A stretch of DNA of 64,000 bases from a phage. The position numbers and the translations under genes are program-made. This document shows, in pieces, positions 5,435 to 62,312 of the stretch; within the stretch, counting starts at the first letter, position 1, and the number at the start of each line of letters is the position of its first letter. The notes below the pieces were generated by a model that was not told the DNA's origin, did no database searches, and was given only the letters and a program-made list of their open reading frames with translations. Where the stretch lies: the sequence record PX104379.1. One strand, given 5' to 3'.

Positions 5435-5661
5435 TTATTTTTCTCAACCAATGATTGAATATAATCATGCAGGTCTTTAGATGCTTTGCCCCACTTATTT
5501 TGATATTCATTTTTGAGATTAGCACGTGATTGAGCTAATAAAACATCATTAGTTGGAGGTAAAGATTCTAATCGTTGAATCTGTCGTCCATAAATCATTG
5601 CAGCCATCTCGGATTCATAAATCAGTCCTTTGAGATGTTCAAATTGATGCCATGAAATCAT
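5431..5661 (-). CDS. hypothetical protein, 76 aa
   Basis: ORF track. Confidence 0.5.
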
Positions 5662-5957
5662 TTACATTTATCCTCTTTTAACTCTTGACGATAATAACAT
5701 ATCATAGTTTTCTGGTCATGTACATATCGTTTTACATCATTAAGCCAAATACGAAATTCCTGAGAATCTTCAAATGGCATACCGACCCAAGCTTTACCAT
5801 CGATAACTTTAACTTGCCAAGATAGTTTAGCTTCGTCATATGACTTTATTTGTACAGGCCAATTAGGATGAACTGTTTCTTTCTTTACTTCTAGAGGCTT
5901 TGTCGAACAACCAACTAGAAGACCAATAGATAATATTACTGCTGATAGTTTAATCAT
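5658..5957 (-). CDS. putative lipoprotein, 99 aa
   Basis: N-terminal signal with lipobox-like LLVGC. Confidence 0.55.
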   Translation of the reverse strand: MIKLSAVILSIGLLVGCSTKPLEVKKETVHPNWPVQIKSYDEAKLSWQVKVIDGKAWVGMPFEDSQEFRIWLNDVKRYVHDQKTMICYYRQELKEDKCK

Positions 5958-6307
5958 TTAGAAAGGTCCTGGATGTCTTCTGCGAACTTGTTGAAGGAGT
6001 TGTTGATTTGTTTTTCAACCAATCCTGGCTTATGAGCCACCACATCCGCCTTCTTTGCGTCTTTGCGCAGTTTTTCATTTTCACGCTCAATAGCAGCAAT
6101 CGCCTCACGATTTTTAGTATTCATCGCATCAATATAATTATACTGAATTCGCAAATTATTTAATGCTAAGGCGTTTTCATTGGCCGTTTTTGTAATTTCT
6201 ACAACAGACGTTTCTAATCTTTCAATTTTATTTTTTAAAATTAAAGAAGTTCCGCCCAATGCAATTACAATTAATAACAAGCCTGCTGTCGTATTACTTA
6301 ATTGCAT
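5954..6307 (-). CDS. membrane-anchored coiled-coil protein, 117 aa
   Basis: N-terminal hydrophobic helix followed by a charged helical region. Confidence 0.55.
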   Translation of the reverse strand: MQLSNTTAGLLLIVIALGGTSLILKNKIERLETSVVEITKTANENALALNNLRIQYNYIDAMNTKNREAIAAIERENEKLRKDAKKADVVAHKPGLVEKQINNSFNKFAEDIQDLSK

Positions 6308-6829: not shown

Positions 6830-8453
<1,624 letters not shown>

Positions 8454-8480
8454 AATAAAATGGGCCTTGCGGCCCACTCC

Positions 8481-9659
8481 TTAAAAGTATTTTTTAAAAC
8501 TCATCATAACTTTATCATCAACATCATTATCAATCTGTGCAACAAGATAAGATGACAGTTCTACTTCTTGTGGCGCGGATTGAACATTATCAGAATTAAG
8601 ATATTCACGAATCCAAGGATATGGGTGTTTAACCGGAGCATCGGTAATTGGGCATGGAAGACCACACTGTTTCATACGAGATACAGTTAAGTAATCAATA
8701 AAGCTCCACATGCTATTTGTATTTAATCCAGGAACATCACCATCTTTAAATAAATGAACTGCCCAATCTTTTTCTTGGCGGTTAACTTCCATGAAAATAT
8801 CAACTGCTTCTTGTTCACACTCTTGAGCAATTTTAACCCATTCATCGCCATCAGTGCCAAGTTGAAGTTGACGAATAATATATTGGGTGCCTTTAAGGTG
8901 AAGCTGCTCATCACGTGCAATGAACTTCATAATCTTGGCATTACCTTCCATGATTTCCATGTTCTTATGGAAGTTAAAGGTACATGCAAAAGATACATAA
9001 AAACGAATAGCTTCCAATGCGTTGATTACATGCAAACAGAGGTAAAGAGATTTCATTAGCTCACGCTTCCAATATGTCTCATGCTCAATAGCATCTTCAA
9101 TAACGTCTTCGTCTGCATTAATTTCTTTTTGGTATTCGATATCAGCTTTAGCGTTTTCCCAATAACGAGTTTTAATCAGAACATCATCATAATAACGTCC
9201 AATGGATTCAGCACGTTTCATAATAGCTTCATCTAATACAATTTCATCAAATACCTTCGATGGATCAGTATAAAGATTTCGCATGATATGTGTATATGAA
9301 CGACTGTGAATAGTTTCACTAAAAGTCCATGTAGCAACCCATGTATCAAGACTTGGGTCTGAAATTAACGACATAAGTACAGCAGACGGTGCACGACCCT
9401 GAATGCTATCTAGAAGTGATTGATACTTCAGGTTATTAGTAAAAATATCTTGCTGATATTGAGGAAGCTTGTTAAATTGCGCAGCATCCATCATTAAGTT
9501 TACTTCTTCAGGACGCCAGAAAAATGACAACTGCTTTTCGGTTAAATCTTCAAAAACTTTATGACGTTGAATATCATAACGCGCAATACCAAGACCTGAA
9601 CCAAAAAACATAGGTTCTTTTAAAACATCAACTGGATTTGTATTAAAAACTGTGCTCAT
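8481..9659 (-). CDS. nrdB: ribonucleotide reductase small (beta) subunit, uninterrupted
   Basis: 392 aa contiguous ORF recognised as class I RNR small subunit; directly downstream of nrdA. Confidence 0.9.
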   Translation of the reverse strand: MSTVFNTNPVDVLKEPMFFGSGLGIARYDIQRHKVFEDLTEKQLSFFWRPEEVNLMMDAAQFNKLPQYQQDIFTNNLKYQSLLDSIQGRAPSAVLMSLISDPSLDTWVATWTFSETIHSRSYTHIMRNLYTDPSKVFDEIVLDEAIMKRAESIGRYYDDVLIKTRYWENAKADIEYQKEINADEDVIEDAIEHETYWKRELMKSLYLCLHVINALEAIRFYVSFACTFNFHKNMEIMEGNAKIMKFIARDEQLHLKGTQYIIRQLQLGTDGDEWVKIAQECEQEAVDIFMEVNRQEKDWAVHLFKDGDVPGLNTNSMWSFIDYLTVSRMKQCGLPCPITDAPVKHPYPWIREYLNSDNVQSAPQEVELSSYLVAQIDNDVDDKVMMSFKKYF

Positions 9660-9710
9660 AAATTTTCCGCTTAGTTAATAGTTGGTGACTCGTCCGTGAG
9701 TCAAATTATA

Positions 9711-11975
9711 TCATAATTTACAGGATGAACAATCTTCAGCTTTTGGAGTTTCTATTTCATAATCATCAGTACCAGAACCATCACGGGTATTATGATAATA
9801 GAAATTTTTTCCGCCAAAATACCAAAAATACAAAAGGTCATCAATCATTATTGACATTGGAACCTTGCCTTTAGGGAAGATTTGGGGGTCATAGTATGTA
9901 TTCGCCGAAGCTGATTGACAAACCCATTTCAGCATAATAGCTACCTGCGTAAGATAAGGTTTATTACCTTTCTTAGCTAATTTCCATGTATAGTCGTAAA
10001 GGTCTATGTTATGCTCAATATTGGGCACGACCTGATTAAAGGAGCCCTCTTTTGATTCTTTAACAGAGACTGGTCCACGTGGAGGCTCGATACCGTTTGT
10101 ACTGTTAGAAACTTGGGAAGATGACTCACATGGCATAAGTGCTGATAATGTACTATTACGGATGCCAAAGAGCTTAAGGTCTTCCCGCAGCGCCGACCAG
10201 TCACAAACGTATTTTGGAGCTGCGATTTGGTCAATCTTTTTATTGTACCAGTCGATAGGTAATTCGCCTCGAGACCAACGAGTGTCTGAATAATATTCGC
10301 AAGGTCCTTTTTCTTTGGCGAGCTTAATGGATGCTTTAATGAGTCCATACTGTAATCTCTCAAATAGTTCATGTGTTAAATCGTTAGCATCTTCATAAGA
10401 AGCAAAGTTACTTGCCAGCCAAGCTGCATAGTTAGTAACACCTACACCAAGGTTTCGACGCTTTTTAGCTTTTTCTGCTTCAGGAACTGGATATCCTTGG
10501 TAATCCAAAAGATTATCAAGAGCACGAACTTGAACTTCTGCCAATTCATTAATTTTATCTTGGTCTTGCCAATCGAAGTTATCCAGCACAAATGCAGATA
10601 ACGTGCACAATCCAATTTCAGCATCGGGGCTATTCACATCATTTGTTGGAATAGCAATTTCACAGCACAAGTTACTCTGACGAATAGGTGCCTTTTCACG
10701 AATAAATGGAGTATAGTTATTCGTATTATCAATGAACTGTACATAAATCCTTGCTGTTCCTGAACGTTCAGTCATGAGCAATTCAAATAGTTCACGGGCT
10801 TTAATACGCTTTTTACGAATATTAGGGTCTTTTTCTGCTGCTTCGTATAATTCACGGAAACGGTCTTGGTCTTTAAAATAAGAATAATAAAGCTCGCCAC
10901 CCATTTCATGCGGACTGAACAAAGTAATGTAGTCGTTCTTTCCAAAACGTTCCATCATCAAATCATTCAGTTGGACGCCATAATCCATATGACGGATACG
11001 GTTTTCTTCTACACCTTTGTTATTTTTCAAAACGAGAAGATTTTCAACTTCCAAATGCCAAATAGGATAATAAGCAGTAGCAGCGCCGCCACGAATTCCA
11101 CCCTGTGAACATGATTTAACTGCAGTCTGAAAATGTTTCCAAAAAGGAATAACACCGGTATGGCGTACTTCACCCATGCCAATCTTAGAACCTTCGGCAC
11201 GAATCATACCAACGTTAATACCAATTCCAGCACGTTTGGAGATATATTCAACAATTGAAGCGGAAGCCTTGTTGATAGACTTTAATGAATCACCTGCCTC
11301 AATAACAACGCATGAACTAAACTGTCTAGTCGGAGTACGACAACCAGCCATAATAGGAGTTGGCAGTGAAATCTGTCGAGTAGATACTGCTTCATAAAAA
11401 CGGATAACATGTTTTAATCTATCAACAGGTTCATCTTGATGCAGTGCCATTCCAATAGCCATAAATGCAAACTGTGGAGTTTCATAAATTTGACCAGTGG
11501 TTTTATCTTTAACTAGATATTTTTCTTTTAATTGCATCGCCCCGGAATAAGTAAATTCCATATCCCGCTCGTGCTTAATTTTTGATTCTAAAAATGTAAT
11601 TTCTTCTGCTGAATATTTTGACAATAATTCAGGGTCATATTTACCTGCATTTACACAATAAGAAATATGGTCAATAAATGAACGCGGTTCATACTGCCCA
11701 TAAACATGCTTACGAAGAGCAAACATTAAACAACGTGCAGCTACATATTGGTAATCAGGCTCTTCAACCGAAATAGAATTCGCAGCGGCCTTAATGACAA
11801 TAGTCTGAATATCATCAGTTGTCATTCCATCACGGAGATAAGATTTAATATTTTCATATAATTCATAAGGATCTACTGATGTTCCCTCAGCTGCCCAAGA
11901 TAAAACTTTAATAATTTTTTGTGGGTCAAAGCTCTGAGAAACACCACTACTTTTGATAACATTAATTAATTGCAT
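9711..11975 (-). CDS. nrdA: ribonucleotide reductase large (alpha) subunit, 754 aa
   Basis: 754 aa, same length as T4 NrdA; recognised as class I RNR large subunit. Confidence 0.9.
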   Translation of the reverse strand: MQLINVIKSSGVSQSFDPQKIIKVLSWAAEGTSVDPYELYENIKSYLRDGMTTDDIQTIVIKAAANSISVEEPDYQYVAARCLMFALRKHVYGQYEPRSFIDHISYCVNAGKYDPELLSKYSAEEITFLESKIKHERDMEFTYSGAMQLKEKYLVKDKTTGQIYETPQFAFMAIGMALHQDEPVDRLKHVIRFYEAVSTRQISLPTPIMAGCRTPTRQFSSCVVIEAGDSLKSINKASASIVEYISKRAGIGINVGMIRAEGSKIGMGEVRHTGVIPFWKHFQTAVKSCSQGGIRGGAATAYYPIWHLEVENLLVLKNNKGVEENRIRHMDYGVQLNDLMMERFGKNDYITLFSPHEMGGELYYSYFKDQDRFRELYEAAEKDPNIRKKRIKARELFELLMTERSGTARIYVQFIDNTNNYTPFIREKAPIRQSNLCCEIAIPTNDVNSPDAEIGLCTLSAFVLDNFDWQDQDKINELAEVQVRALDNLLDYQGYPVPEAEKAKKRRNLGVGVTNYAAWLASNFASYEDANDLTHELFERLQYGLIKASIKLAKEKGPCEYYSDTRWSRGELPIDWYNKKIDQIAAPKYVCDWSALREDLKLFGIRNSTLSALMPCESSSQVSNSTNGIEPPRGPVSVKESKEGSFNQVVPNIEHNIDLYDYTWKLAKKGNKPYLTQVAIMLKWVCQSASANTYYDPQIFPKGKVPMSIMIDDLLYFWYFGGKNFYYHNTRDGSGTDDYEIETPKAEDCSSCKL

Positions 11976-12292
11976 AAGTCCTCAACTTGAAAATCGTCTT
12001 TAAACAATCGGTTAACTATATGAGCTATTATATCACCATGACACGGCTTTGGTTTACATGTGCATCCTAGCCTCATTCCACGTAAAGGCTCTAAATGTGC
12101 TTTAGTTATTTCTCCGGATTTAATTCGACGTATAAAATCTTTTTTGAATAATTCAATGGCAGCCTCCCGGCTGCCAGCATCTTTACCGATGTAATTTCCC
12201 CAAAATGTACCACGGTGAATATTAACATCAAAGTCGGATTTATATTTATTCACTACCCGACATAGACGGCCCGGTTGGTAATAATTCTTCAT
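11966..12292 (-). CDS. hypothetical protein, 108 aa, Cys/His-containing
   Basis: ORF track; motif GTFWGNYIG ... [11 protein letters not shown]. Confidence 0.6.
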
Positions 12293-12521
12293 ATTGTTTT
12301 TCCGTTAATACAGTAATATCATAGTAACAATCGGAAGAAGTTTTAACTGTGGAAATTTTATTATCAAAATACTCACGATTCATTTTATGAGTATAATATT
12401 TTTTACCATAAATGATAATAGGCTGTTCTGGTCCTGGAACTTCTAACTCACTTGGATTAGGAAGTGTAAAAAGAACGACACCAGAAGTATCCTTAAATCG
12501 TAAAATCATATATCCTCTCAA
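12246..12521 (-). CDS. hypothetical protein, 91 aa
   Basis: ORF track. Confidence 0.5.
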
Positions 12522-12532
12522 TTAAATTAAAA

Positions 12533-13393
12533 TTATACCGCCATCTTTCCTTTAATTGACGGATGAGATACATAGTTGTTAAGAACAAAATTATGCGGCT
12601 TTGCGAATTGACTCAACCAAAATACCTGCGATTCTGTGTCCCATTCATCAAATTCATCTGGAAATTTTAATTGTAATTCGCATAAATCCATAGGTTCACG
12701 ACGCAAAATTTCTTTACATTGTTCTACGTGATTCATATAGATATGAGTATTACCACCAGAAAATATCAAATCTCCCGGAATAAGATTACACATCTTAGCT
12801 ACAATATGAACTAACGTAGCATATGATGCAATATTAAATGGAAGACCGAGGAAAACATCTACCGAACGTTGATACCACTGCAAATCTAAATAGCCATTAC
12901 GCACATTAAACTGATAGAACATATGACAAGGCGGTAATGCCATATATTTAAGTTCAGCTGGATTCCACGCAGAAACAATTTGACGCCTATCATTTGGCAT
13001 TTTTTTAATACGATCAACAACTTCTATAATTTGGTCTACACCGCCAAAATCGCGCCACTGTTTTCCATAAATTGGACCAAGTTCACCACTATGGTATCCT
13101 AAATCTTTTGCCTGATTTTCGTAATTTTCATCCCAAACTGTTTTGCCTTGGATTAACGAATCGTGTTGAATTAATCGTAAATCATTGACATTTGTGCTTC
13201 CCGATAAAAACCATATTAGCTCAGCAATGCATGCATTCCAGGCGAGCTTCTTAGTTGTTACTGCAGGAAAACCTTTGGTTAAATCCCATCGTAATTTAGT
13301 ACCGAACAAAGCAATTGTTCCTGTGCCCGTTCGGTCATCGGTTTCATAGCCATTTTCAAAAATGTCTTTAATTAAATCTTGGTATTGTTTCAT
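12533..13393 (-). CDS. td: thymidylate synthase, 286 aa, uninterrupted
   Basis: 286 aa contiguous ORF recognised as thymidylate synthase. Confidence 0.9.
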   Translation of the reverse strand: MKQYQDLIKDIFENGYETDDRTGTGTIALFGTKLRWDLTKGFPAVTTKKLAWNACIAELIWFLSGSTNVNDLRLIQHDSLIQGKTVWDENYENQAKDLGYHSGELGPIYGKQWRDFGGVDQIIEVVDRIKKMPNDRRQIVSAWNPAELKYMALPPCHMFYQFNVRNGYLDLQWYQRSVDVFLGLPFNIASYATLVHIVAKMCNLIPGDLIFSGGNTHIYMNHVEQCKEILRREPMDLCELQLKFPDEFDEWDTESQVFWLSQFAKPHNFVLNNYVSHPSIKGKMAV

Positions 13394-13438
13394 TTAGTAC
13401 CTTATATAAATTATAATACATTTTATGAAGCTAAATAA

Positions 13439-13798
13439 TCAATACGGTTTAGCATCAAATTTTCTCTCAATTTCAGGTGTGAAATATAATTCTTTACCGC
13501 GTTTGGAAAAGCGACCAATAATATGATAATTATTCTCATCAAACGTGATATTACCAATATCCATAGCTTTCAACCAAATATCGATATTTCTATCCAGCTT
13601 TATGTCAAAATTCCAATACGGAGAACTATTACCGAAAATACTACAAGCGGATTCGGTGAAACAGCTACTATAAATCTTGTCTTTAGGAACTACTAATTGA
13701 TAGACACCTTTAATAAACTGAGGACCTTGCCATTTTGGCTGTTTCGCGTCTTTTTCTAATAGAATAGGGTAATAATTAAAATTCATATTTTCCGCCAT
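13439..13798 (-). CDS. hypothetical protein, 119 aa, between frd and td
   Basis: ORF track; co-oriented; no recognisable motif. Confidence 0.6.
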   Translation of the reverse strand: MAENMNFNYYPILLEKDAKQPKWQGPQFIKGVYQLVVPKDKIYSSCFTESACSIFGNSSPYWNFDIKLDRNIDIWLKAMDIGNITFDENNYHIIGRFSKRGKELYFTPEIERKFDAKPY

Positions 13799-13806
13799 GC
13801 GTTATT

Positions 13807-14629
<823 letters not shown>

Positions 14630-14645
<16 letters not shown>

Positions 14646-14989
14646 TGAAAGGGGCCATAAGCAAATCCGCTATCTTTAATCATTTTAACTAAAGTTACCA
14701 TTCCTCTGTTAACTGCTTGTGCGATTTCATTAAAAACTTCATCACTATCACCATAAAGATCGCTAAAAAGTTCTAACACGTTCTTCTGAACTTTTAATTT
14801 ACAACCAACAAATTCGCCTACAGTAAATTCGTTTCCGCCAACTCCAGCGTAAAACGTAATTACACCAGTTAATGGTCTTTCACTAGAACATAGGTCGTGT
14901 GATAAATTAATATAAGCCGTCCCGGGCGCAGTTTTAAGTTGGCAACGAATACTTACTCGAGCAATTCCAGCTACACGAATGTCAGACAT
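14630..14989 (-). CDS. hypothetical protein, 119 aa
   Basis: ORF track. Confidence 0.55.
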
Positions 14990-14999
14990 ATTATTTTCC

Positions 15000-15242
15000 T
15001 CAAACAGACTTTTTCACAATTTTCCAATCAGCTTTAAACTGATCAACATCAGAATGATAAATCCAAAATCCTGCGCTTTCACCATCTTCATAAAGCGGAC
15101 ATCCATCGCATTCATCTTCCCATCCCATATCACGCAAAAGATGTTCAGCTTTTTCAACAAGTTCAGAATCTTTACCGATGATATTAAAATACCATTTACC
15201 TCTAACTTCCGAATCTTTGATGCTTTGACGTTGTAATCTCAT
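15000..15242 (-). CDS. hypothetical protein, 80 aa
   Basis: ORF track; GGAG Shine-Dalgarno; early promoter upstream. Confidence 0.55.
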   Translation of the reverse strand: MRLQRQSIKDSEVRGKWYFNIIGKDSELVEKAEHLLRDMGWEDECDGCPLYEDGESAGFWIYHSDVDQFKADWKIVKKSV

Positions 15243-40539: not shown

Positions 40540-40580
40540 TTAATTATACCACATCCTTGTGGTAAAGTAAACTACTGGCT
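40540..40580 (-). promoter_or_regulatory. T4 early-type promoter overlapping the gene 39 stop
   Basis: Plus strand aattatacc ... 16 nt ... gtaaac. Confidence 0.4.
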
Positions 40581-42392
40581 CATCCATTCTTTACGAAGAT
40601 CAGCATTATCTCCCATGAGCATTTCAAAAAGCTCTTTCCAGTTCTCAGGAAGTTTAACAACATCATATACCGGATTTTGAATCATCTCACGATATTCAGA
40701 TTTTTCCAAAGAGCCAAGTCCCTTAATATAACGGATGCTATGTTTAGGTAGAGCATCTTTAGCACTCTCATATTCAGCGACTGTATAAAACCATTCTTGT
40801 TTTTTACCGACCTGAGCGATGATTACAGGAGTTTTGACAAAGCGAATTCGTCCTTGCTCAAACAATTCTGGCCAATTACTAAAAAACCCGAGCAGAGAAG
40901 GATAAATGCTTCCTAAACCATCATGGTCAGCATCGGTCATAATAGCAATATTATGATAATTCAAGTTTTCAGCTTTTTCACCAAGAACTAATCCAGTGAT
41001 TGCGCAAATATCAAACAGTTCTTTGTTTTTAAGCATATCAGCATATGACATACCCCAACTGTTGAGAACTTTACCACGCAATGGATAACCACCATGAAGT
41101 TCTTTATCACGAACATCAATAAGATATCCGATAGCAGAATCACCCTCAGTCAAGAAAAGAGTAGTATCAGCATCTTTACCACAAAGATTCGCTTTGATAT
41201 GTTTATGAACCTTAGCTTTAGAAGCCTTTTTAGCTGCTTTAGTTTCTGCTGCTTTTTCTGCTGCCAATTTACGGGCCAAAGCAGCTTCAATAATCGGCAT
41301 TAAAATTGCTTCATTATTTAGAATAGCGCGTGAAATCTTTTTAGCATCAAGTTGAATATGACTACGAATTTCACCAAAAGGAGAAGTAAGTCGTTCTTTA
41401 GTTTGAGAATCAAATCGCATGTTTTTCATATCACGGACAAACATAACGATAGTCAAACATTCTTTAACGCGTGCTTTAGTTACATCAATTTTGAACTTAC
41501 GTTTGATTTGTGGAATAAGGTCTTCACAAATATCATCCATAACACAGTCAATGTGATGGCCACCATTCTTAGTGTGAATGTTATTCACATAAGTTAATTG
41601 GCGAAATCCATCCGGTGAACGACCAACCGCAATAGAACAATTTTCTTGTTCTTGAACAATAGCATGTTCATCATACTGTCGTGCATATTTCTTAAAATTG
41701 CCCTGAACCTTTTTACCATTAAAGGTAAATTGAATATCAGGATAAACAACAGCAAGTGTCTGGAGACGATCTAGTGTAATGTCAAGATAAACTTGGGACA
41801 GCTCATTAGTTTCAAATGACATAAAATCTGGAATGAAAGTAACACGAGTTCCTTTCCATTTTCCAGGAATAGTTTCCCAGGATTTATTTTCCATGCCATT
41901 TGAACAACGAACTACAATATTATTTTGACCATCGCCAGTTTCACCGACAAACATCACAGAAAAAATGTTAGTTAAACTAGAACCAACACCATTCATACCA
42001 CCGGTGACGCGTTCTTTATCATCACCGAAGTTACCACCTGCTTTTGGAATAGTCCAAGCAGCAACTGGACCAGGAATTTCTTCACCGGTAGGTGTTTTAA
42101 CCATCGCTTGTGGAATACCGCGACCGTTATCTTCAACTGTTACCTGATTATTTTTAATGGTAACATTAATTTTATTCGCGAATTTAAACTTAGTACGAAT
42201 ACCTTCATCGACTGAGTTATCGATAATTTCATCAATAAGCTTAACAAGACCAGGTACATACTGAACACTTTCCCATTTACCAAACAGAAAGCGCTCATGC
42301 ATTTCATTAGCAGAAGAGCCAATGTACATGCCACTACGCTTTTTGATATGTTCAATATCGCTCAGAATTTTAATTTCATTCTTAATCATCAC
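40572..42392 (-). CDS. 39: DNA topoisomerase II large subunit gp39 (GyrB-like), unsplit, 606 aa
   Basis: Single contiguous 606 aa ORF with ATPase and Toprim regions; no separate gene 60. Confidence 0.9.
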   Translation of the reverse strand: MMIKNEIKILSDIEHIKKRSGMYIGSSANEMHERFLFGKWESVQYVPGLVKLIDEIIDNSVDEGIRTKFKFANKINVTIKNNQVTVEDNGRGIPQAMVKTPTGEEIPGPVAAWTIPKAGGNFGDDKERVTGGMNGVGSSLTNIFSVMFVGETGDGQNNIVVRCSNGMENKSWETIPGKWKGTRVTFIPDFMSFETNELSQVYLDITLDRLQTLAVVYPDIQFTFNGKKVQGNFKKYARQYDEHAIVQEQENCSIAVGRSPDGFRQLTYVNNIHTKNGGHHIDCVMDDICEDLIPQIKRKFKIDVTKARVKECLTIVMFVRDMKNMRFDSQTKERLTSPFGEIRSHIQLDAKKISRAILNNEAILMPIIEAALARKLAAEKAAETKAAKKASKAKVHKHIKANLCGKDADTTLFLTEGDSAIGYLIDVRDKELHGGYPLRGKVLNSWGMSYADMLKNKELFDICAITGLVLGEKAENLNYHNIAIMTDADHDGLGSIYPSLLGFFSNWPELFEQGRIRFVKTPVIIAQVGKKQEWFYTVAEYESAKDALPKHSIRYIKGLGSLEKSEYREMIQNPVYDVVKLPENWKELFEMLMGDNADLRKEWMSQ

Positions 42393-44302: not shown

Positions 44303-44722
44303 TTATGCTAAAGCTGCTTCGCACCATTTTTTAATTTGGAATTCAGGAACTACCATGAACTGGCCTGCAAAAACAATATTGTAGAGCTTGACGCCATCTT
44401 CTACCCAACGGTCCGAAATAAAACCAGCGACTTGATTCGTTGTCCATGGAGTTCCATCTGTTGCCGCCGCAATTGTGAATTTATGGTCTTTTACAACTAA
44501 AACTGAAGAACAAAGTTTCCATTTAAATGCGCTTTCTTCTGGCTCAATGAACTGACTTGAGACATAACCAATGTTACCATCAGCGTCACGAACTTTAACC
44601 TCGTTACGACCAAAAACTGGATCACTTACAGAAAGAACTTCAACCAGCTTTCCTGCAACTTTAGAACGAGAAGCAACAGATACATATACGTAATCACCAG
44701 TAGAGAGATTTACAATATTCAT
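44303..44722 (-). CDS. hypothetical protein, 139 aa; member 1 of a tandem paralog triplet
   Basis: Shares C-terminal motif D(R/Q)W(V/I)EDG(V/K)xL(Y/L)N(I/V)V..G..xVV with the next two ORFs. Confidence 0.6.
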   Translation of the reverse strand: MNIVNLSTGDYVYVSVASRSKVAGKLVEVLSVSDPVFGRNEVKVRDADGNIGYVSSQFIEPEESAFKWKLCSSVLVVKDHKFTIAAATDGTPWTTNQVAGFISDRWVEDGVKLYNIVFAGQFMVVPEFQIKKWCEAALA

Positions 44723-44731
44723 AATAATTCC

Positions 44732-45208
44732 TTAAGCTTTACGAGGAGAAGCATAACGAGTGATTTCAGATTCTTCAACAACCCGGAAGTCACCTAAGAA
44801 TACGATATTGTATAGCTTTTTACCGTCTTCAATCCATTGGTCTGTGATGAAGCCACACATCCTATCAGTTTTACTTGGACCAGCGAAATCATCAATATAA
44901 TCGAATTCTTCATCAGTTACAAATTCAACGCCTTTACACAACGCCCATTTAAATTGTGCATTAGACTCAGTGGATTCAACTTCTTCAACAGAAGCAAAAT
45001 GAGAGCTAACACGAGTTTCCAGAAATTTAGGACTTACGTAAGCGTACTGAGTTTCAGTTTTTCCAGAACTAGGAATGATTCGAACTTTAACTTCTTTAAC
45101 ACGACCAGTACCATTAGTACGAAGTCCTACCACTTCAACTAGACGACCTGCAGCTTTAGAACGAGATGCAGATGATACACGCTTAATTTCACCAATATTA
45201 ATAATCAT
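44732..45208 (-). CDS. hypothetical protein, 158 aa; member 2 of a tandem paralog triplet
   Basis: Conserved motif GFITDQWIEDGKKLYNIVFLGDFRVVEE. Confidence 0.6.
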   Translation of the reverse strand: MIINIGEIKRVSSASRSKAAGRLVEVVGLRTNGTGRVKEVKVRIIPSSGKTETQYAYVSPKFLETRVSSHFASVEEVESTESNAQFKWALCKGVEFVTDEEFDYIDDFAGPSKTDRMCGFITDQWIEDGKKLYNIVFLGDFRVVEESEITRYASPRKA

Positions 45209-54477: not shown

Positions 54478-55128
54478 TTATTTTTCCTTTCTTATGAAGT
54501 TTTCTATCATATGTCTATAGCAGATATTAGGATAACCTGCCTTGACAGCTATTTTATTAAATTTTGTGCGCTTAGGTCTATTATTATAAACCCATAATTC
54601 ATAAAGCGCATCATAACTATTCCATATTTCTCCTCGCCTAGGATTTGGTAAACCATATCGAGGTGAATTTTTACCGCTAAATCTTCCTTTTCGGGCTTTA
54701 CTCATATTAGCCTTGGCTTCATCGGATATAATTTTACCTTTATGAGCTAGACGCATTTTGGCTTTAGTTTCTTCTGGGGTCTTTTTGCCTTTAATCCATG
54801 ACGGCTTGCCATATCTAGGATTATTTTCACCCGAGAAAAGAACAGAGTTTTGGATTTTAAGGGTTTCTATTAATCTACTTGTTAATTTAACACCTTTATT
54901 ATATCGCATTAAATTTACAGCATAATGCAATCCTCTCACATCTGGATATATTTTAGTTAATAATCTATGAGCTATAAAATGCTCACGCGCAGTTAACTCA
55001 ACAAGATTGTTTTTGTCATCTGCTCCTCCTATACATCTAGGAATTATATGATGGCGTTCTTTATATCCGCCAAGATGCCGGCATTTAGCTTTTGTAATTA
55101 AAGCCGAGTAAATTTTTTGGTAATTCAC
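54478..55128 (-). CDS. HNH homing-endonuclease-like protein with NUMOD3 DNA-binding repeats, 216 aa
   Basis: HNH motif ERHHIIPRCIGGADDKNNLVELTAREHFIAH; two NUMOD3-like repeats (PEETKAKMRLAHKGK, SDEAKANMSKARKGR). Confidence 0.8.
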   Translation of the reverse strand: MNYQKIYSALITKAKCRHLGGYKERHHIIPRCIGGADDKNNLVELTAREHFIAHRLLTKIYPDVRGLHYAVNLMRYNKGVKLTSRLIETLKIQNSVLFSGENNPRYGKPSWIKGKKTPEETKAKMRLAHKGKIISDEAKANMSKARKGRFSGKNSPRYGLPNPRRGEIWNSYDALYELWVYNNRPKRTKFNKIAVKAGYPNICYRHMIENFIRKEK

Positions 55129-56592: not shown

Positions 56593-56949
56593 TTAACCTC
56601 TATTCATAAAAGCATTAAAAATTTGGTCATCAATAGATGGCACAGTAATATTTTCTGCATCATTTAGCAAATCATTAATTTCATCGGATAGCATAACACA
56701 TGTACCTTTATTTCCTGTAATTGTTACTGCGCAATTACGAACGTTTTCTTTATTAAATTTTAGGTTAATATTTTCGTAATGAAAATCCTTTAATGCTGAA
56801 TATATTTTTAAAATAAAATTGTCTTTTACTACAATAAACCCAACCTCACTATTAAAACGTGGTTCATGGAAACTGTAATAAACCTTTTCATCTATAAAAT
56901 CGTATGAAATTTTTTCCATTTTTAAATATGAAAATTCAGAACTATACAT
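56593..56949 (-). CDS. hypothetical protein, 118 aa (61.1-like); C-terminus shared with the next ORF
   Basis: C-terminal ...SIDDQIFNAFMNRG identical to the C-terminus of ORF 56951..57577. Confidence 0.55.
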   Translation of the reverse strand: MYSSEFSYLKMEKISYDFIDEKVYYSFHEPRFNSEVGFIVVKDNFILKIYSALKDFHYENINLKFNKENVRNCAVTITGNKGTCVMLSDEINDLLNDAENITVPSIDDQIFNAFMNRG

Positions 56950-61463: not shown

Positions 61464-62312
61464 TTAATCAACTGCTATCGGATGAATAGCATTAAACTTA
61501 TGAAATGCTTCTGATTTTTCTTTGCGCGAAACACACATGCGAAGAACCTTTAATGGCTCGTCTTCTTCACCCAACGATTTTCGTTTTTCAATATTAGAAG
61601 TTTTCCAACGAGCTTGCTCTGGAAACTCTCTATTGATTTGCTCAAGCGCTCTATTATGTTTAGAATTACTACGAATTGAACTACACCCGCCAGGAGCTTG
61701 CGCTTTACCTGATACAACCAGATATTTGAACAAGGCCAAATGCGGATAACCTTGATTAATTAAATTGAGAAATGCATACATATCTTCGCACAAATCAATT
61801 TTTCCATACCCAATTTGTTCTGTCGTAAGTTTTCCAAGGTCATACCATGTATTCGTGAATCCATATGAATTTTCACGATAATTACCCCAAGATGAAGTAA
61901 TTTTAAAAATAGGTAGACGAGCATGACCGTGATAATACCCGCAATCCATAGCATCTTCAACGTATTGAATCAATTCGTAGAATTGTTCACGGGTTAATTG
62001 ATTGACTTTATCTACACAGCGACGATCATCTCTTTTTCGCATTGAGCTCATACGAATCGTAGTATCATCGTCAATCATCCAGATTCGTTGACCTGCATAC
62101 ATATCAGTAATTGCTTTACGAGTACCGGCAATTCCGTTTACATCATCAGGAATAGTTACAATTTTAGCTCTAGACCCGTAAGCGTCATAATAAGCTTTTT
62201 CTTCGTGTTCACGCACTACAATATGGGGTTCATAATCAGTTGGAAACATATCAAGGGCAGAAACTGCCCCAACACGCTGATAGCTTGGAATTACGAATTG
62301 AATCATTTCCAC
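61464..62312 (-). CDS. putative glycosyltransferase (GT-A-like) at the beta-gt locus, 282 aa
   Basis: N-terminal VIPSYQR and DxD-type motif IWMIDDDTTI; lies between uvsX and 42. Confidence 0.6.
   Translation of the reverse strand: MEMIQFVIPSYQRVGAVSALDMFPTDYEPHIVVREHEEKAYYDAYGSRAKIVTIPDDVNGIAGTRKAITDMYAGQRIWMIDDDTTIRMSSMRKRDDRRCVDKVNQLTREQFYELIQYVEDAMDCGYYHGHARLPIFKITSSWGNYRENSYGFTNTWYDLGKLTTEQIGYGKIDLCEDMYAFLNLINQGYPHLALFKYLVVSGKAQAPGGCSSIRSNSKHNRALEQINREFPEQARWKTSNIEKRKSLGEEDEPLKVLRMCVSRKEKSEAFHKFNAIHPIAVD

Follow-up and report, generated by a model that had tools for sequence, protein, structure and literature searches.

The thymidylate synthase (td) and ribonucleotide reductase small subunit (nrdB) genes of phage T4 are interrupted by group I introns that encode the homing endonucleases I-TevI and I-TevIII, and it was already recognized in the late 1980s that these introns are patchily distributed among T-even phages. 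An initial annotation of sequence record PX104379.1 described td and nrdB as intronless, which raises the question of whether the two genes lost their introns, resist them, or simply carry sites that are unoccupied. We addressed this question in the 64-kb stretch of the record (hereafter, the window), which derives from a T4-like phage of the Tequatrovirus, with PhiZZ23 as its nearest relative.

Layout of the td-nrdA-nrdB Region

The region comprises five genes between positions 8481 and 13393, all on the minus strand:

8481..9659, minus strand: nrdB, class Ia ribonucleotide reductase (RNR) small subunit, a single 392-codon ORF (ORF list, blastn, Pfam/NCBIfam)
9711..11975, minus strand: nrdA, class Ia RNR large subunit, 754 aa (ORF list, Pfam)
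11966..12292, minus strand: nrdA.1 homolog, DUF4326 (ORF list, T4 annotation, Pfam)
12246..12521, minus strand: nrdA.2 homolog, DUF5496 (ORF list, T4 annotation, Pfam)
12533..13393, minus strand: td, thymidylate synthase, a single 286-codon ORF (ORF list, blastn against T4, PF00303)

Both td and nrdB are recognized over their full length by family models. The td product matches PF00303 along positions 1–266 of 266 (E = 4e-94, 315 bits) and TIGR03284 (ThyA; 294.7 bits, cut-off 108), and its active-site PCH motif lies in ‘ALPPCHMFYQF’, which is identical to that of T4. NrdB matches the class Ia RNR beta subunit (PF00268; E = 1e-36, 127 bits) and NF006576 (E = 8e-146; 485.7 bits, cut-off 346). 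The NrdB motifs SETIHSRSYTH, ALEAIRFYVSFA, and ARDEQLHL are identical in the window and T4, and we take these to be iron-ligand and tyrosyl-radical motifs, with roles assigned by way of Escherichia coli NrdB. The initial annotation had called both lengths canonical. This holds for td, which at 861 nt equals the spliced T4 gene, but not for nrdB, since the 392-aa product has the length of the T2 protein whereas T4 NrdB comprises 388 aa. The 4-aa difference falls in a variable surface patch.

The gene layout of the window is, gene for gene, that of phage T2. In T2 (PV648363), the order frd-td-nrdA-nrdB-denA is identical to that of the window, td (861 nt) and nrdB (1179 nt) are likewise uninterrupted, and nrdA and nrdB are separated by the same 51-bp spacer, without mobE. 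Overall identity between T2 and the window is 88% for td and 95% for nrdB, although the first ~365 nt of nrdB, which include the mapped MobE nick region, are identical. Colinearity with the window across 6.5 kb was observed in 36 of the 40 best-matching phage records. The closest genomes, those of Citrobacter phage PhiZZ23 and Escherichia phage vB_EcoM-101117BS1 (Tequatrovirus zeezee23), are 97.4–98.5% identical across these 6.5 kb (nrdB, 99.8%; td, 98.4%) and share both the intronless layout and the variable segment of td. A mob-like HNH gene between genes 56 and 61 is present in the window but not in PhiZZ23. The Escherichia phages ESCO58 and TadeuszReichstein are ~97% identical to the window in the region.

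The Insertion Sites in td and nrdB

Alignment of the window to T4 placed both intron insertion sites within the uninterrupted ORFs, along with segments in which the genes vary:

12834..12871, minus strand: unoccupied td intron insertion site (12845/12844) and I-TevI homing-site region
12584..12691, minus strand: hypervariable C-terminal surface segment of td, nt 703–810 (aa 235–270)
8954..9030, minus strand: unoccupied nrdB intron insertion site (8984/8983) with exon flanks
9060..9165, minus strand: variable surface-loop patch of nrdB, nt ~495–600, which holds a 12-nt length difference from T4

In td, the end of T4 exon 1 and the start of exon 2 correspond to 12845/12844, after codon 183, and blastn indicates that the 1017-nt T4 intron is skipped exactly. 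In nrdB, the T4 exon junction corresponds to 8984/8983, and the 598-nt T4 intron is missing. The claim that both genes are intronless is thus borne out by uninterrupted ORFs in which the T4 exons are joined exactly, and by the permissive Rfam scan described below, and no observation speaks against it. The initial annotation is also right that T4 carries introns with I-TevI and I-TevIII in these genes, and the T4 annotation and alignment place them precisely at the two junctions.

I-TevI recognizes a 38-bp target and cuts at -23/-25 relative to the td insertion site (PMC2988022). In the window, the cleavage motif 5'-CNNNG-3' is kept as CAACG (12871..12867, or -27 to -23), and the exon 1-exon 2 junction is contiguous. 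Seven synonymous differences from T4 were identified between -22 and +18, including those at -22 and -19, beside the cleavage site, and those at -6 and -4, where the exon base-pairs with the guide sequence of the intron in P1.

At the nrdB site, from -30 to +30, an interval that spans the positions of I-TevIII cleavage at -14/-16 (PMC1865063), the junction is contiguous and the single difference from T4, at -2, is shared with T2. Further upstream, at -47 to -31, the window has the ‘empty-site’ haplotype of T2. The nrdB flanks fall into two haplotypes: T4, G8, and a20 (Mosigvirus), all intron-bearing, have one, and the intronless window and T2 have the other. The association between flank haplotype and intron status is weaker in td, where intron-bearing fPS-90 has window-like exon-2 alleles.

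The hypervariable C-terminal segment of td (nt 703–810) is 37% identical at the nucleotide level to T4 and T2 and 98% identical to PhiZZ23. A link between this segment and intron status was considered and rejected, given that intronless T2 has a T4-type segment, unlike the window, and intron-bearing a20 has a window-like one.

Search for Intron Remnants and Homing Endonuclease Genes

The initial annotation had named a group I intron fold within either gene as the observation that would overturn its claim. A scan with the Rfam group I intron model (RF00028) in E-value mode identified none between positions 7500 and 15000 at E ≤ 10 and none in the whole window at E ≤ 1. As a positive control, the same mode detected both T4 introns, with 40.3 and 35.7 bits. 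In contrast, the default gathering threshold misses these genuine introns, and a clean default scan of the window proves nothing alone and was discarded as evidence for this reason. Searches of the 64-kb window with T4 intron DNA, I-TevI, and I-TevIII (both truncated and full-length) by blastn and tblastn returned chance-level matches only. The best match (28 nt, E = 0.004) lies outside td and nrdB, and protein matches had E > 0.3.

A further element present in T4 is also missing from the window, and two features bear on it:

9660..9710, minus strand: nrdA-nrdB spacer, 51 bp, where T4 has ~700 bp with mobE and nrdB.1
9534..9538, minus strand: MobE nick region, nrdB nt 122–126, nicks mapped in T2

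The statement that two mobile elements of T4 are absent is therefore accurate but incomplete, since a third, free-standing mobE with nrdB.1, is lacking as well. The window is without the td intron with I-TevI, the nrdB intron with I-TevIII, and mobE, while the host genes and insertion sites are the same as in T4, the window presenting the exact targets in their intron-minus form. The third T4 intron site, in nrdD, lies outside the window. The I-TevIII of T4 is itself a truncated, defective copy (T4 annotation; PMC1865063). The other four T4 homing endonuclease genes of the span (segG, mobA, segF, and segA) are absent across the whole 64 kb. A terminator-like hairpin was looked for in the nrdA-nrdB spacer and none was found, and a promoter and terminator scan of 8000–14600 yielded counts indistinguishable from those of shuffled sequences, with nothing in the spacer. 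MobE-dependent nicks have been mapped in T2 nrdB at nt 122–126 (PMC2790892). From nt 90 to 160 of nrdB, the window is identical to T2 at 71 of 71 positions, and mobE-bearing T4 differs at 15.

Distribution of Intronless Alleles

Screening of a phage database indicated that the intronless state is the majority state for td and nrdB and that T4 is the outlier. Among 600 td-matching records, 393 hold at least 80% of td in one place (~65% uninterrupted), and the T4 td intron was detected at 80% coverage or more in 197 records. The nrdB intron was detected at the 80% level or above in 118 records, as compared to 931 nrdB-matching records, 661 of which match with at least 80% identity. Expressed over the nrdB-matching records, the share with the intron is ~13–18%. 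These data are consistent with descriptions of T4 as an unusual genome and an outlier for its homing endonuclease load, and of T2 as the classical intron-free recipient (PMC2988022, PMC2790892). The wording of the initial annotation, by which absence ‘removes’ the elements, suggests a loss, but among relatives empty sites are more frequent than occupied ones, and T2 is arranged in this way. Intron-free td and nrdB of this kind are already known biology.

Origin of the Unoccupied Sites

We consider it highly probable (about 95%) that the window carries a T2-type td-nrdA-nrdB segment in which neither of the intron sites nor the mobE slot is occupied. Under this reading, td and nrdB would be translated from a colinear mRNA, and self-splicing would not be required. 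Both sites probably remain competent homing targets, since the CAACG motif is kept, the MobE nick region is that of T2, and the 30 nt on either side of the nrdB site hold only one change. Indirect support for I-TevI acting at the td site comes from the invasion of T2-like and window-like alleles, in crosses as well as naturally. In a mixed infection with an intron- or mobE-bearing relative, td would be cut by I-TevI 23/25 nt upstream of its insertion site, and nrdB would be nicked by MobE at nt 122–126 and cut by an intact I-TevIII at -14/-16. Repair templated by the donor would then introduce the element and carry adjoining exon sequence of the donor along with it.

Two relatives appear, from their sequences, to represent natural invasion of near-identical alleles. 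ESCO58 has a 1016-nt td intron with I-TevI, which the window lacks, and its td carries T4-type alleles from nt ~105 to 546, which give way to window-type alleles at nt 552 and beyond, the pattern of a co-conversion tract in exon 1. In TadeuszReichstein, nrdB contains an intron of 1089 nt that includes an endonuclease ORF and is likewise missing from the window.

Such polymorphism of intron presence among relatives that are ~97% identical implies that gain and loss both take place on short time scales, and a cyclical model of gain, degeneration, and loss has been put forward for homing elements (PMC2988022). One or both introns might have been present earlier in the lineage and then been lost precisely, through recombination with an intronless co-infecting phage or with a copy of spliced RNA, such that the empty sites are secondary. 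We regard this history as unlikely, although it is the most plausible of the alternatives. Remnants were searched for in the window and none were found, the nrdB flank haplotype is that of intronless T2 rather than that of intron-bearing T4, G8, and a20, and the P1-pairing nucleotides of td at -6 and -4 are of a type absent from the intron-bearing alleles examined. However, recombination with an intronless allele leaves the same pattern as a site that was never invaded, and sequence cannot separate the two for this reason. A different kind of doubt concerns the data themselves, namely that an intron or remnant is present but was missed, as might be suspected from an Rfam gathering threshold that overlooks even the T4 introns, or that introns were collapsed in assembly. 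The probability of this is negligible: the continuous ORFs align base for base to the spliced T4 genes across both junctions, the window yields nothing in the permissive scan that does pick up the T4 introns, and the colinear layout recurs in hundreds of independent genomes, T2 included.

The differences around the td site would also be expected if the intronless alleles were ‘immune’ variants, in which synonymous changes were selected to block I-TevI, I-TevIII, or MobE. Seven such changes lie from -22 to +18, including two next to the cleavage site, and mispairing with the guide sequence of the T4 intron would be predicted at two of the seven exon nucleotides in P1. Nevertheless, the CNNNG-type motif CAACG is intact, binding by I-TevI is described as sequence-tolerant (a title in the reference list of PMC2988022, and a general statement of that review on homing endonucleases), and T2, whose sequence departs from that of T4 at most of these positions, is the recipient of T4 homing endonuclease markers in T4 × T2 crosses (PMC2790892). 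Moreover, ESCO58 is an invaded allele with the exon-2 haplotype of the window, and the MobE target of the window is identical to the mapped T2 site. Selection for resistance is therefore very improbable. A narrower version for td alone, in which a CTC Leu codon (altering two of the seven guide-pairing exon nucleotides) and the changes at -22 and -19 would mark a natural, lineage-specific ‘intron-immune’ allele, either resistant to I-TevI or leaving an incoming intron defective in splicing unless the flank is co-converted, is if anything slightly more improbable still.

Implications

Annotation of td and nrdB requires no join or splice. Loss of markers around both genes would be predicted in mixed infections with T4-type phages, and homing experiments could use the phage as a recipient that naturally lacks the introns and mobE.

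An ORF Between frd and td

One additional ORF lies just outside of the td-nrdB region:

13439..13798, minus strand: 119-aa ORF between frd and td

This ORF is absent in T4, where frd and td overlap, but is present in T2 (~115 aa) and in most relatives. It was considered as a hidden homing endonuclease, as it is annotated in three BASEL phages, but this label is unsupported. Sequence searches of the ORF against Pfam, NCBIfam, and PDB were negative, and an exhaustive HMMER search recovered only 17 small relatives, among which no conserved acidic or His residues were identified. A confident AlphaFold model (pLDDT 89) had no significant fold match in PDB (best E = 0.27), the matches being weak and OB-barrel-like. 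The ORF falls in a PHROG family of unknown function. ESCO58 encodes both this ORF and the td intron, indicating that the two are not mutually exclusive.

Absence of the td and nrdB Introns

The window is from a Tequatrovirus. In the database it is matched best by PhiZZ23 and vB_EcoM-101117BS1 (species 'zeezee23'), with 97.4-98.5% identity over a 6.5-kb stretch. Every gene between rnlA and frd is on the minus strand:

8026..6866, minus: rnlA
8477..8043, minus: denA
9659..8481, minus: nrdB, class Ia RNR beta subunit, 392 aa
11975..9711, minus: nrdA, 754 aa
12292..11966, minus: nrdA.1
12521..12246, minus: nrdA.2
13393..12533, minus: td, thymidylate synthase, 286 aa
13798..13439, minus: extra ORF between frd and td, 119 aa
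14415..13807, minus: frd

The thymidylate synthase match spans the full length of the td product, and the nrdB product is recognized as a class Ia RNR beta subunit over curated cut-offs (Pfam and NCBIfam in both cases).

The T4 region was retrieved and aligned to the window, where both T4 exon junctions are crossed without interruption. In td, T4 exon 1 ends (after codon 183) at window position 12845 and exon 2 begins at 12844, with the 1017 nt of the T4 intron absent. In nrdB, the exon 1/exon 2 junction lies between 8984 and 8983, and the 598 nt intron is likewise absent. The nrdA-nrdB spacer (9660..9710, 51 bp) stands where T4 has ~700 bp carrying nrdB.1 and mobE.

No group I intron match was obtained in the window with Rfam at its default gathering threshold, a setting that was also blind to the T4 introns used as a control. 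The curated gathering score of Intron_gpI is 50 bits, whereas the genuine introns score 35.7 (5459-6056) and 40.3 bits (10548-11564) in the T4 reference region. A clean default scan is thus no proof that a T4-like phage is intron-free. In E-value mode, the control td and nrdB introns were recovered (40.3 bits, E 9e-8, and 35.7 bits, E 2e-6, respectively), and no intron was found in window positions 7500-15000 at E<=10 or in the entire window at E<=1. Searches of the window with T4 intron DNA (blastn) and with I-TevI and both I-TevIII forms (tblastn) returned chance matches only.

The initial annotation, which described td and nrdB as intronless, is therefore borne out by the T4 alignment, the controlled Rfam scan, and the blastn and tblastn searches, and the hidden group I fold that would have contradicted it was not found in the window. 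Its interpretation holds with minor corrections. Both genes had been called canonical in length, which is accurate for td (286 aa; 861 nt as in T2), whereas the 392-aa NrdB is of the T2 type and that of T4 has 388 aa. The T4 introns had been described as carrying I-TevI and I-TevIII; the sites match, but I-TevIII of T4 is a truncated, inactive copy (T4 annotation; PMC1865063).

Prevalence of the Intron-Free State

T2 (PV648363) has the same layout as the window (861-nt td, 1179-nt nrdB, 51-bp spacer, and the extra frd-td ORF), and 36 of the top 40 database records align colinearly with the window over the 6.5 kb. In the phage collection, 393 of 600 td-matching records have 80% or more of td in one place, and 197 have the T4 td intron to the same extent (80% or more). 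The T4 nrdB intron reaches that extent in 118 records, compared with 931 that match nrdB (661 of these at 80% identity or higher). These counts indicate that intron-free is the majority state for both genes, on which reviews agree. The window shows this common T2-type state, and the intron polymorphism of the locus is textbook knowledge. A patchy spread of the td and nrdB introns was reportedly described in 1987-1989, and then in 2004.

The Empty Insertion Sites

Within a 38-bp target in td, I-TevI makes its cuts upstream of the insertion site, at distances of 23 and 25 nt (PMC2988022). The CAACG motif is retained in the window at -27..-23 relative to that site (12871..12867). Between -22 and +18, the window and T4 differ by seven synonymous changes, which are shared by PhiZZ23, 101117BS1, teqskov, and KFS-EC3; T2 also differs from T4 at most of these positions. 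Two of them (-6 and -4) produce a Leu codon CTC instead of TTG and may lie in the exon strand of P1, which pairs with the guide sequence of the intron. Among the intron-bearing alleles examined this codon is TTG (T4, fPS-90) or TTA (a20), and the a20 intron guide sequence has a change matching its TTA codon, with which it would pair.

Within -30..+30 of the nrdB site, the sole difference between the window and T4 is at -2, as in T2. MobE-dependent nicks have been mapped to nt 122-126 of T2 nrdB (PMC2790892); across nt 90-160 the window is identical to T2 (71/71), whereas the mobE-bearing T4 differs at 15 positions. One haplotype from -46 to -2 is common to the intron-bearing T4, G8, and a20 (Mosigvirus), and another to the intronless window and T2. 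The association of flank haplotype with the intron is weaker at td.

Two relatives ~97% identical to the window have one intron each. The td intron of the Escherichia phage ESCO58 (1016 nt) includes I-TevI. Wherever T4 and the window have different td bases, ESCO58 is T4-type from nt ~105 to 546, upstream of the insertion, and window-type from nt 552 on. This T4-type tract of ~440 nt in exon 1, with none in exon 2, is a case of one-sided co-conversion of the kind made by homing. TadeuszReichstein has a 1089 nt nrdB intron with an endonuclease ORF, and its flank is T4-type at -2 and window-type from -31 upstream. The site sequences and these invaded relatives together suggest that td and nrdB of the window contain homing sites that stand empty and have probably kept their competence.

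That the alleles instead resist the endonucleases is quite improbable, given the intact cleavage motif, a MobE target equal to the one mapped in T2, and the invasion of near-identical alleles. An overlooked intron or an assembly artefact is scarcely credible: the base-for-base alignment, together with the controlled scan, rules both out. Secondary, precise intron loss, as opposed to sites that were never invaded, is somewhat easier to entertain but still unlikely; precise loss via recombination with an intron-free allele gives the same flanks, such that the two histories are indistinguishable from the window sequence.

Homing Endonuclease Genes Across the Window

Alignment of the whole 64 kb to T4 revealed that all T4 homing endonuclease genes of the span are absent: I-TevI, the I-TevIII remnant, mobE, segG, segF, and segA, together with the mobA/60.1/gene-60-bypass cassette. 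Even so, the window does have a gene of this kind, an ORF with HNH and NUMOD3 matches:

54478..55128, minus: free-standing HNH + NUMOD3 ORF, 216 aa, between genes 56 and 61

Over the N-terminal 81 aa the product shares 62% identity with T4 MobE (E 2e-29), and its C-terminal part is similar to the corresponding end of SegA (E 4e-7). T4 has dam at this position, and no Dam homologue was detectable anywhere in the window. The ORF is present in only ~30 of 697 matching phage records and is lacking in PhiZZ23, the closest relative; the adjacent gene 56 has just 76% identity to its T4 counterpart.

The frd and td genes overlap in T4, whereas the window has the 119-aa ORF (13439..13798, minus) between them, as do T2 and most relatives. 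Three phages of the BASEL collection have it annotated as 'putative homing endonuclease', a label left unsupported by searches of Pfam, NCBIfam, and PDB, which gave no match. The family is small, with only Q, W, G, G, K, and G invariant. A confident AlphaFold model (pLDDT 89) shows a small fold rich in beta structure, for which the PDB yielded no significant neighbour.

Other Observations in the Window

Thymidylate synthase has, in its C-terminal region, a hypervariable and phage-specific surface segment (td nt 703-810; 12584..12691, minus), with 37% nucleotide identity to T4/T2, compared with ~95% over the remaining gene. The window type resembles that of teqskov, AndreasVesalius, and Mosigvirus ATK48, indicating that the T4/T2 type is the outlier; this variation is unlinked to intron status. 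A variable patch of NrdB (nrdB nt ~495-600; 9060..9165, minus), which we take to be a surface loop by alignment to the E. coli NrdB, differs from T4 by 4 aa in length and has at least three unrelated versions (T4; window/T2; G8/a20).

One 606-aa ORF (40572..42392, minus) covers what are genes 39 and 60 in T4. A T4 stretch of 1104 bp with the gene-60 translational-bypass region, 60.1, and mobA is replaced by 51 bp in the window, which indicates an unsplit topoisomerase large subunit without the bypass element. In place of the segA and beta-glucosyltransferase genes of T4, the window encodes a 282-aa homologue of beta-glucosyl-HMC-alpha-glucosyltransferase (61464..62312, minus; phrog_842, E 1e-89; Pfam TAGT), a homology that suggests T2/T6-type DNA glucosylation. 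A 118-aa ORF (56593..56949, minus) that adjoins the gene 61.2 homologue and is not in T4 at that spot matches the C-terminal half of AdfA, an anti-DarT factor (PF23813, E 7e-8). Finally, the position of the single T4 motB is taken by a pair of neighbouring MotB-like ORFs, 139 and 158 aa long (44303..44722 and 44732..45208, minus); the shorter aligns almost end to end with the PHROG MotB-like profile, while its best stretch against Pfam motB covers the C-terminal part only.
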